Shown here: positions 51,361 through 52,976 of the stretch, piece after piece
Layout of the letters: the number at the start of each line of letters is the position of its first letter
Numbering within the stretch: the first letter of the stretch is position 1
Sequence record: PQ516281
DNA from: Escherichia phage vB_EQ1
Length of the DNA stretch: 64,000 nt
Strand: one strand, 5' to 3'
Notes under the pieces: generated by a model
Databases searched by the model: none
What the model was told of the DNA's origin: nothing
What the model saw: only the letters and a program-made list of their open reading frames with translations
Made by a program: the position numbers and the translations under genes

Positions 51361-52260
51361 TTATTCCTCGATTACGACATCTTCGTATTTAGGTATATTA
51401 TACGGCGAAGAAATTAAAGCGTTAAAGTAGATGAACTCACCAAGACCTGGATGGAATACTTCTTCAGGATTTTCGAAATATTGAATCTTCGGACGTCCTT
51501 TAAGAATTTGATAGTACTCAGTTTTAGTTGGATTAAAAATTCGAATCAGCGCTTCTTCAGGATACTTATTTCTGTCGAAACTATTATTTGGATCAGTTAT
51601 ATAAAGCGGTTGACCTAATTGAATTGCGCATTCAACAACTTGTTCAAAACGATAGCATGGGTCACTAATTCGAAATGGATGAAAAATACCATCTAGATGA
51701 ATAGGAGCCAAATCACCTACAAGACGCTGCATGACGGAAGGACGTATAACTTTCTGCGTTACGATAATCTTATTACCATCTGCACCTGCGTTAACCAGCA
51801 CTTCTTTTTGACGTTCATTCAACACAGTAGTTTGAAGTGAACGATTAACCGACAACATGTCGGTTTTTAAGAATTCGTCAATATAAAAACGTGGTTTATT
51901 AGGGTCTGCAGTGATATTGAAATTGAATTCTACGTCAAAAGCGCCATCATATCCAGTGATATCTGTGATTAGAAAATCACAATCATAATAAGCAATTAAT
52001 GAATCAACCACAAATTCATTTTCAGACCAGAAATATTTACGAGTGTTATACGCGTTATCTTTATACCATAATGGAACAAACTTAAATTCTGGGAAAAGAC
52101 GTTCACATTCTTTAATATCAGATGCATTACGTGGATATGTAATCACATCGCCTGGATTAGCACGGTGCAAATGAAGTTGGAAGTTGCCATCCTTAAGGAT
52201 AGCATACTGTCCAGTTTCATAAGACCGCATACTCAAAATAGGTACGCGGAAAATAGCCAT
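51361..52260 (-). CDS. hypothetical protein (modification cluster member)
   Basis: ORF track 299 aa; 1-nt gaps to both neighbours. Confidence 0.6.
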   Translation of the reverse strand: MAIFRVPILSMRSYETGQYAILKDGNFQLHLHRANPGDVITYPRNASDIKECERLFPEFKFVPLWYKDNAYNTRKYFWSENEFVVDSLIAYYDCDFLITDITGYDGAFDVEFNFNITADPNKPRFYIDEFLKTDMLSVNRSLQTTVLNERQKEVLVNAGADGNKIIVTQKVIRPSVMQRLVGDLAPIHLDGIFHPFRISDPCYRFEQVVECAIQLGQPLYITDPNNSFDRNKYPEEALIRIFNPTKTEYYQILKGRPKIQYFENPEEVFHPGLGEFIYFNALISSPYNIPKYEDVVIEE

Positions 52261-52976
52261 TAGTCAAGAAACCCTTTAACATAATCAAAATCACGTTCAA
52301 ACACATGGGCACTTACCATGGTATGAGTATAATCACCAACTTCTACACCACATTCGTTAGCGATATAATGAAGTAATTTTCCTTGGAGATAAAAATCCAA
52401 CTGCATAACAACAGCACAGTTCTGAGAACGCATATGACAGTGGGTATAAAGCTTACCATCGCGAATATAATAAGTCACTGAGTCAGTACATGGATATTCA
52501 AGCGTTTCGTCCGAATCAAGCAAAGCCTGATCAGAACTTTCTAGAATTTGGAACACAACTCTTCGAGAGTTAGGCTTCTCTTTAAGTTCTTTTAGAAGAG
52601 CCGGTAATTGGGCCGCAATGCGAGGACCGTAGAAAGTGTTGAAGTTTGCAGGCAAAGCGTCTGATTTAGGTTTAGAAATAAATTTAGCGACATTAGGATA
52701 TGCCTTAAACGCTTCTTCTGCATCAGTACCACCAGAAATCATAAACTTCCAGAAGTCTTCGGCATATTCATAAGAGATGCGGTTAATACGTGGGTCGGTC
52801 ATTTTGAATGATGATGGAGTGTCAACAACTACTGTCATAGACCCAATTTCATTACAACGTCCAATACGAGAATCAGTTACGAATTCCGGGTTTTCTAAAA
52901 TTTCACGATTGACTGCTTTAAATGCGGTTTGAAAATCTGCGGCTTTGATATATTTCATTGTGTTATGTTTTCCCAT
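52260..52976 (-). CDS. 42: deoxycytidylate 5-hydroxymethyltransferase (gp42-like, thymidylate synthase fold)
   Basis: 238 aa; ...NSRRVVFQILE...CTDSVTYYIRDGKLYTHCHMRSQNCAVVMQLDF... parallels T4 gp42 ...SRRGIMIY...CTNTVQYLIRDKKINAVVNMRSNDVVFGF...; GAGGT SD. Confidence 0.75.
   Translation of the reverse strand: MGKHNTMKYIKAADFQTAFKAVNREILENPEFVTDSRIGRCNEIGSMTVVVDTPSSFKMTDPRINRISYEYAEDFWKFMISGGTDAEEAFKAYPNVAKFISKPKSDALPANFNTFYGPRIAAQLPALLKELKEKPNSRRVVFQILESSDQALLDSDETLEYPCTDSVTYYIRDGKLYTHCHMRSQNCAVVMQLDFYLQGKLLHYIANECGVEVGDYTHTMVSAHVFERDFDYVKGFLD

Follow-up and report, generated by a model that had tools for sequence, protein, structure and literature searches.

A thymidylate-synthase-fold gene in the arabinosylation cluster of Escherichia phage vB_EQ1 very probably encodes a flavin-dependent 5-hydroxy-dCMP synthase

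In the DNA of phage RB69 all of the cytosine is replaced by 5-hydroxycytosine that carries one or two arabinoses, attached through an ether link at C5 (Lee et al., NAR 2026, PMC13326640). In that work expression of RB69 gp48 together with the phage deoxynucleoside monophosphate (dNMP) kinase introduced 5-hydroxy-deoxycytidine (5hodC) into the DNA of E. coli, the product took up 18O from 18O2, and flavin mononucleotide (FMN) co-purified with the enzyme; the product had a mass of 243 Da and co-eluted with the 5hodC standard, whereas T4 gp42 in the same assay gave 5-hydroxymethyl-deoxycytidine (5hmdC). Asn at the position of ThyA residue 169 (D169N) was proposed as a signature of 5-hydroxy-deoxycytidine monophosphate (5hodCMP) synthases, and nine of nine further homologues with D169N made 5hodC (PMC13326640). 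For the phage HY126 enzyme, that paper cites He et al. (Nat Chem Biol 2026) for a crystal structure with flavin and for in vitro reconstitution. The 2018 paper in which arabinosylation was first described had assumed a gp42-type hydroxymethylase for RB69 (PMC6024577), and the older assignment of 5-hydroxymethylcytosine (hmC) to RB69 has been corrected again in PMC13390438. Here we examine a stretch of 64,000 nucleotides (nt) from Escherichia phage vB_EQ1 (sequence record PQ516281; hereafter the window), in which a gene on the minus strand at 52260..52976 encodes a protein of the thymidylate synthase (TS) fold. A sequence-only reading of the window had taken this protein for a gp42-like deoxycytidine monophosphate (dCMP) hydroxymethylase and its product for hmC, the same reading as that of the 2018 paper (PMC6024577). 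The function of the gene is already known from work published in 2025-26, and the chemistry of the sequence-only reading is outdated.

We conclude that 52260..52976 very probably encodes a flavin- and O2-dependent dCMP C5-hydroxylase, a 5hodCMP synthase orthologous to RB69 gp48, which would take the first step towards arabinosylated cytosine DNA. The open reading frame (ORF) runs from ATG to TAA, and its 238-amino-acid (aa) product matches Pfam Thymidylat_synt with an E value of 2.4e-15 and 56.9 bits (cut-off 24.3). The ORF is not a chance one, since 844 phage records contain the protein by tblastn. It is 100% identical in amino acid sequence to RB69 gp48 (RB69ORF048c), which the RB69 reference annotates as 'similar to dCMP hydroxymethylase, td', and 235 of its 238 residues (98.7%) are identical in PDB entries 9IQC, 9IR2 and 9IQU, which are probably the structures of the HY126 enzyme. 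The RB69 gp48 and HY126 5hodCMP synthases share with the window enzyme the gene order and the D169N, N177D and L143E substitutions (ThyA numbering), and we see no substantive difference between them. At the nucleotide level, the 6.7 kb surrounding the gene match Escherichia phage MRostami-2023e at 100% identity, and RB69 together with about 150 further Mosigvirus records at approximately 98%; the window comes from an RB69-like Mosigvirus.

The active site was compared by aligning the protein with T4 gp42, gp42 of Aeromonas phage 44RR, E. coli ThyA, the canonical thymidylate synthase (Td) of the window and cluster-associated relatives from phages of Acinetobacter, Pseudomonas, Serratia, Klebsiella, Tenacibaculum and Rhizobium. 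The catalytic Cys163 (ThyA C146, T4 gp42 C148; codon 52488..52490, minus strand) stands in an invariant column and begins the motif CTDSVTYYIRDG at residues 163-174, and here the sequence-only reading, which had pointed to a TS-fold ORF with a catalytic Cys context, was correct. Along with the fold and this Cys, the protein shares with ThyA and Td the phosphate-binding R138/R139 and R183, as well as S184 and H224 (ThyA R126/R127, R166/S167 and H207). Asp194 (T4 gp42 D179; codon 52395..52397, minus strand) occupies the position of ThyA N177, which discriminates dCMP from deoxyuridine monophosphate (dUMP; PMC13326640), and Glu160 that of ThyA L143; both are gp42-like and unlike TS. The folate-side residues common to ThyA, Td and gp42, on the other hand, are all replaced: ThyA E58 by F75, W80 by A97, D169 by N186 (codon 52419..52421, minus strand) and G173 by V190, the gp42 counterparts being E60, W82, D171 and G175. 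The replacements at E58, W80 and G173 were agreed by MAFFT and by a profile-profile alignment with hhalign (probability 99.2%). The ThyA-169 column, site of the published 5hodCMP synthase signature (PMC13326640), holds Asn in seven of seven cluster-associated relatives, which include the experimentally verified one of Rhizobium phage RL38J1, and Asp in ThyA, window Td, T4 gp42 and 44RR gp42. An alignment with gp42 and Td, which had been suggested as the means of confirming hydroxymethylase substitutions, thus gave a gp42-like nucleotide side as anticipated and a folate side that is neither that of TS nor that of gp42.

Taken with the RB69 chemistry, these residues suggest the following pathway. 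T4 gp56 hydrolyses deoxycytidine triphosphate (dCTP) and diphosphate (dCDP), and the gp56 of vB_EQ1, an orthologue as judged by its sequence, would likewise convert dCTP and dCDP to dCMP. The TS-fold enzyme would bind dCMP, with Asp194 reading the N3/N4 face of cytosine, as expected from TS and gp42, and Cys163 would add to C6, as in all enzymes of this fold. The activated C5 would then be oxygenated by a flavin-derived species from O2 instead of attacking methylene-tetrahydrofolate; F75, A97, N186 and V190 may reshape the former folate pocket for flavin, and elimination of Cys163 would free 5hodCMP. A phage dNMP kinase, whose gene lies outside the window, and the host nucleoside diphosphate (NDP) kinase would carry this to the triphosphate, 5hodCTP, which the gp43 polymerase would insert in place of deoxycytidine. 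After replication, the arabinosyltransferases encoded at 51361..52260 and 29441..30541 would put arabinofuranose directly on the C5 oxygen, using a uridine diphosphate (UDP)-arabinose donor supplied by the neighbouring isomerase, kinase/pyrophosphorylase and phosphatase genes. The general logic of the sequence-only reading, in which a dCTPase depletes dCTP, a TS-fold enzyme modifies dCMP and sugars follow later, therefore holds once 5-hydroxy is put for 5-hydroxymethyl. Its proposal that cytosine is completely replaced by hmC before glycosylation survives in part: complete replacement is published for RB69, but the modified nucleotide is 5-hydroxy-dCMP and not the hydroxymethyl form (PMC13326640).

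This assignment has weak points. For vB_EQ1 the function is carried over from RB69 gp48 on the strength of the identical sequence. The N-terminal half of the protein aligns only weakly with TS and gp42, and the assignments of F75 and A97 are alignment-dependent, though two methods agree. A refinement of the hydroxylase reading, in which the TS-fold enzyme would be the aerobic half and a nearby peptidase-U32-family protein, with host- or phage-made prephenate, would supply 5-hydroxycytosine under anoxia, is possible, though less likely than not.

A folate-dependent dCMP hydroxymethylase of the T4 gp42 type (EC 2.1.2.8), whose 5-hydroxymethyl-dCMP would later be arabinosylated on its CH2OH group, is what the sequence-only reading proposed, and we now consider it very unlikely. 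The two proteins do have in common the TS fold, the Cys nucleophile, Asp at ThyA-177, an acidic residue at ThyA-143 and the logic of a pathway with gp56; the vB_EQ1 gene shares the genomic slot of T4 gene 42, with a glycosyltransferase gene adjoining, some GenBank records label its homologues dCMP hydroxymethylase, and the 2018 paper assumed the same (PMC6024577). However, gp42 uses methylene-tetrahydrofolate and makes a 5-CH2OH product, whereas the window enzyme would use flavin and O2 and make 5-OH, and since the product would be 5-OH and not 5-CH2OH, the sugar would be ether-linked directly to the ring. The RB69 protein identical to the window enzyme yields 5hodC in the very assay in which T4 gp42 yields 5hmdC (PMC13326640), the RB69 hmC assignment has been explicitly retracted by later work (PMC13390438), and the residues conserved in gp42 at E60, W82, D171 and G175 are all replaced. 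Identity to T4 gp42 is 25%, against 62% for gp43, 68% for UvsX and 72% for gp56 with their T4 counterparts, and no T4 gp42 structure is among the best 60 PDB matches of the protein. Orthology to gp42 was rejected on the 25% identity and the loss of the folate-side residues; as judged by these comparisons, the protein belongs to a distinct lineage of the superfamily, and its gene corresponds to gene 42 in position and not by orthology. Among solved structures from outside phages, full-length alignment (residues 14-237, E 1.6e-11) is seen only with the cytidine monophosphate (CMP) 5-hydroxymethylase MilA (PDB 5B6D, 5JNH), which is likewise cytosine-specific and has Asp at both nucleotide-side positions; it differs in its ribonucleotide substrate, in its folate-dependent hydroxymethylation and in being a bacterial enzyme of an antibiotic pathway.

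An ordinary thymidylate synthase converting dUMP to deoxythymidine monophosphate, suggested by Pfam and PHROG matches and by the annotation of homologues in most GenBank records, is the least credible reading and was rejected, for Asp stands at ThyA-177, E58, W80, D169 and G173 are lost, the C-terminal folate-closing tail is absent (238 aa against 264-286 aa), NCBIfam TS equivalog models score 42-68 bits against cut-offs of 108-405, and the window has its own canonical Td beside frd. We used this Td, which does not belong to the module, for internal comparison; it is encoded at 2600..3460 on the minus strand (286 aa; 45% identical to ThyA, E 3e-75) and carries the motif QRSVDVFLGLPFN with D169 and N177. 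It is directly downstream of frd (dihydrofolate reductase), the pair spanning 2600..4128 on the minus strand, so the phage keeps a normal folate-dependent TS beside its flavin-type homologue.

The TS-fold gene belongs to a cluster running from 57360 down to 50811, in which every gene is on the minus strand and neighbours overlap or are separated by gaps of 1-60 nt; this co-directional, closely packed arrangement bears out the view that the gene sits within a single sugar and glycosylation module. At its head an arabinose-5-phosphate isomerase (RB69 gp55; 56725..57360) matches Pfam SIS and the NCBIfam models KpsF/GutQ (2.7e-32) and KdsD (1.2e-30). There follow a bifunctional sugar-1-phosphate nucleotidyltransferase/kinase of 561 aa (RB69 gp52:53, AfhE-like; 54858..56543), identified by Pfam NTP_transferase, weak kinase-family matches and NCBIfam (PMC13326640), and a HAD-type sugar phosphatase (RB69 gp51, AfhF-like; 54472..54873) that matches an NCBIfam capsule biosynthesis phosphatase model at 6.9e-13 (PMC13326640). 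Between these and the TS-fold gene are the peptidase-U32-family protein of Fe-S type (RB69 gp50; 53254..54414), a candidate O2-independent hydroxylase, and a 79-aa protein of the RB69ORF049c family (53018..53257; phrog_8601). Downstream of the TS-fold gene, DNA arabinosyltransferase 1 (RB69 gp46:47, 299 aa; 51361..52260; phrog_3891; PMC13326640 Table 1) begins with an ATG that overlaps the TAA stop of the TS-fold gene in the sequence TAATG, and its translation is probably coupled to that of the TS-fold gene. The cluster ends with a thymidylate-kinase-like nucleotide kinase (RB69 gp45; 50811..51359; phrog_761, 1.9e-45; PMC13326640 Table 1). The 299-aa and 561-aa proteins are each encoded here by a single intact ORF, where the RB69 reference has the split pairs ORF046c/047c and ORF052c/053c. 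This is independent support for the published explanation of the RB69 splits as errors of sequencing.

Elsewhere in the window and also on the minus strand are a second DNA arabinosyltransferase (29441..30541), 99% identical to RB69p003 (PMC13326640 Table 1), and the gene 56 dCTPase/dUTPase (42216..42737; RB69p028), 173 aa from its ATG. The latter had been recognised as gene 56 by the sequence-only reading, and its 72% identity to T4 gp56 (E 4e-94) supports that identification. T4 has beta-gt, gene 42 and imm in the interval from uvsX to gene 43; here that interval is taken up by the arabinosylation cluster with the TS-fold gene, and no beta-gt homologue was found in the window. The superinfection immunity gene imm, which in T4 lies between genes 42 and 43, is at 45777..46025 on the minus strand, approximately 6 kb away and near sp/61.x genes; with imm thus displaced, the slot from uvsX to gene 43 appears to have been rebuilt around the arabinosylation cluster. 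A TS homologue is linked to glycosyltransferase and NDP-sugar genes also in the loci of phages Kimel, PspYZU05, LC53, PWKp16, WG01 and Thanatos-2.

The protein encoded at 53254..54414 may be an O2-independent, prephenate-dependent C5-hydroxylase of deoxycytidylate or of DNA, working beside the TS-fold enzyme in a two-route system, an assignment that we offer tentatively and hold to be short of probable. Because the TS-type hydroxylase needs O2 (PMC13326640) and these phages live in the gut, a second route independent of O2 is a sensible hypothesis. The gene lies 280 nt upstream of the gp48 gene, two positions away, and its product matches Pfam PF01136 with 42.2 bits (cut-off 22.4). It thereby belongs to the U32 family, in which UbiU and UbiV are also placed, together with TrhP, which makes 5-hydroxyuridine (ho5U) in tRNA, and RlhA, which makes 5-hydroxycytidine (ho5C2501) in 23S rRNA, both dependent on prephenate and independent of O2 (PMC6599085). 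TrhP, RlhA and the O2-dependent TrhO arrive at a 5-hydroxypyrimidine (PMC6599085), as the TS-type enzyme does, but their folds are unrelated to its own and their substrates are RNA polymers. In its Discussion PMC13326640 refers to both routes of pyrimidine hydroxylation in tRNA, calls them unrelated to the TS-type enzyme and does not tie them to gp50. The dual TrhO/TrhP pathway of tRNA and the NrdAB/NrdDG pair of T4-like phages offer parallels to an aerobic and an anaerobic route operating side by side.

Genome context points in the same direction. Prephenate is the product of chorismate mutase, and in 54 phage records (Serratia phage LC53, Klebsiella phage PWKp16 and 52 others) a gene matching Pfam CM_2 (chorismate mutase type II) is directly beside the U32 gene, the matches (E 1.7e-11 and 6.7e-10) being above the cut-off. 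The phage mutases keep the equivalents of six active-site residues of E. coli chorismate mutase, and in Shewanella phage Thanatos-2, where the cluster is rearranged, the U32 and chorismate mutase genes are still together. Examples of the paired genes are at L009:4992-6502, L010:5001-6403 and L021:6001-7391. If prephenate is consumed stoichiometrically, the approximately 63,000 cytosines of a genome (a rough figure from 0.375 GC × 169 kb) would call for a large prephenate flux, which would explain why many of these phages have a chorismate mutase of their own. All 221 of the 221 U32-bearing phage records infect facultative anaerobes (Enterobacterales and Shewanella), whereas Acinetobacter phage Kimel and Pseudomonas phage PspYZU05 have clusters that are equivalent except for the lack of U32.

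A database search returned approximately 250 further U32 relatives at 50-58% identity, and the three of these that were looked up (L015:8001-9086, L018:8001-9083 and L016:8001-9098) all adjoin genes of deoxynucleotide metabolism in metagenomic contigs of phage-like appearance, of which one measures 466 kb. Their neighbours encode thymidylate kinase, uracil-DNA glycosylase (UDG), DNA polymerase III alpha, dCMP deaminase, 5'-nucleotidase, deoxynucleoside kinase, deoxyribosyltransferase and radical-SAM proteins. No TS homologue or arabinose gene was found within 8 kb of the U32 gene in these three contigs, a context that argues against a role of the U32 protein in the sugar pathway; such loci may mark other DNA base modifications that have gone unrecognised. 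Nine Cys are invariant in 54 members of the family (C158, C192, C203, C209, C233, C340, C345, C349 and C352), arranged as C-x10-C-x5-C...C in the region of the U32 motif and as a C-terminal C-x4-C-x3-C-x2-C that the U32 paralogues of E. coli do not have. Such a pattern would be expected of an Fe-S enzyme and suggests two metal or Fe-S sites.

Other observations stand against an O2-independent route. BLAST gave no significant pairwise match of gp50 with either RlhA or TrhP. Of the three essential residues of the TrhP motif, E162 and C170 align with Glu and Cys of gp50, while the C177 column holds Gly, with a Cys six residues downstream; a later Cys is invariant. No chorismate mutase was found in the window, the 79-aa ORF belonging to a different family. 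The E. coli Dhakavirus WG01 (L020) has a cluster of isomerase, kinase/transferase, phosphatase, TS-homologue and glycosyltransferase genes with neither U32 nor chorismate mutase; the idea that U32 accompanies the cluster in every enteric phage was rejected on this genome, and U32 is not obligatory. The published guess for gp50 is a 'sugar or heterocycle reductase' (PMC13326640), and He et al. (2026) may give it another role. A sequence search of the PDB with gp50 returned no match, and a literature search, with He et al. (2026) outside its scope, found no link between phage U32 proteins, prephenate and hydroxycytosine DNA.

On a practical level, the identification of the TS-fold gene as that of a 5hodCMP synthase amounts to an annotation correction, as GenBank still mostly mislabels it 'thymidylate synthase', 'dCMP hydroxymethylase' or 'hypothetical'. 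A TS-fold gene accompanied by gene 56 and sugar genes can no longer safely be read as evidence of hmC; Asn at ThyA-169 together with the loss of E58, W80 and G173 separates the flavin hydroxylase from the folate hydroxymethylase. The distinction bears on forecasts of the restriction, CRISPR and type IV systems from which a therapeutic phage will escape, or which it will trigger. Were the U32/chorismate mutase route to prove correct, it would explain how a DNA modification that requires O2 can be essential in a gut phage, enteric phages would make 5-hydroxycytosine DNA in the anoxic gut, and the U32 hydroxylase family would gain its first DNA-precursor substrate. In that case the metagenomic relatives near dCMP deaminase and DNA polymerase III alpha would point to additional DNA with 5-hydroxypyrimidines that has gone unrecognised.

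The 79-aa ORF between the U32 and TS-fold genes overlaps the U32 stop by 4 nt and has no known domain, and its family is restricted to Mosigvirus and a few phages of Yersinia, Serratia and Pectobacterium. We rejected it as a chorismate mutase, as it has no CM_2 match even at an E value of 10 and aligns poorly with mutases; Yersinia phage phiR1-RT and Serratia phage 92A1 each encode a homologue of it as well as a separate chorismate mutase, so that it is neither a mutase nor a substitute for one.

Scans of the cluster for sigma-70 promoters and terminators gave no more matches than expected by chance. The start codon of the TS-fold gene is preceded at 5-9 nt by the Shine-Dalgarno sequence GAGG and at 19 nt by GCTTTA-11 nt-TATAAT (52995..53017, minus strand), a site that fits the T4 MotA-box consensus and is a putative MotA-type middle promoter. 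The window has 39 copies of the pattern GCTTYA-N10-14-TANNNT, where 9.6 are expected. Further copies, all on the minus strand, are at 56572..56595, 51397..51420 and 42771..42794; the TS-fold gene, gene 56 and the kinase/nucleotidyltransferase and kinase-like genes are each closely preceded by such a middle-promoter-like site.

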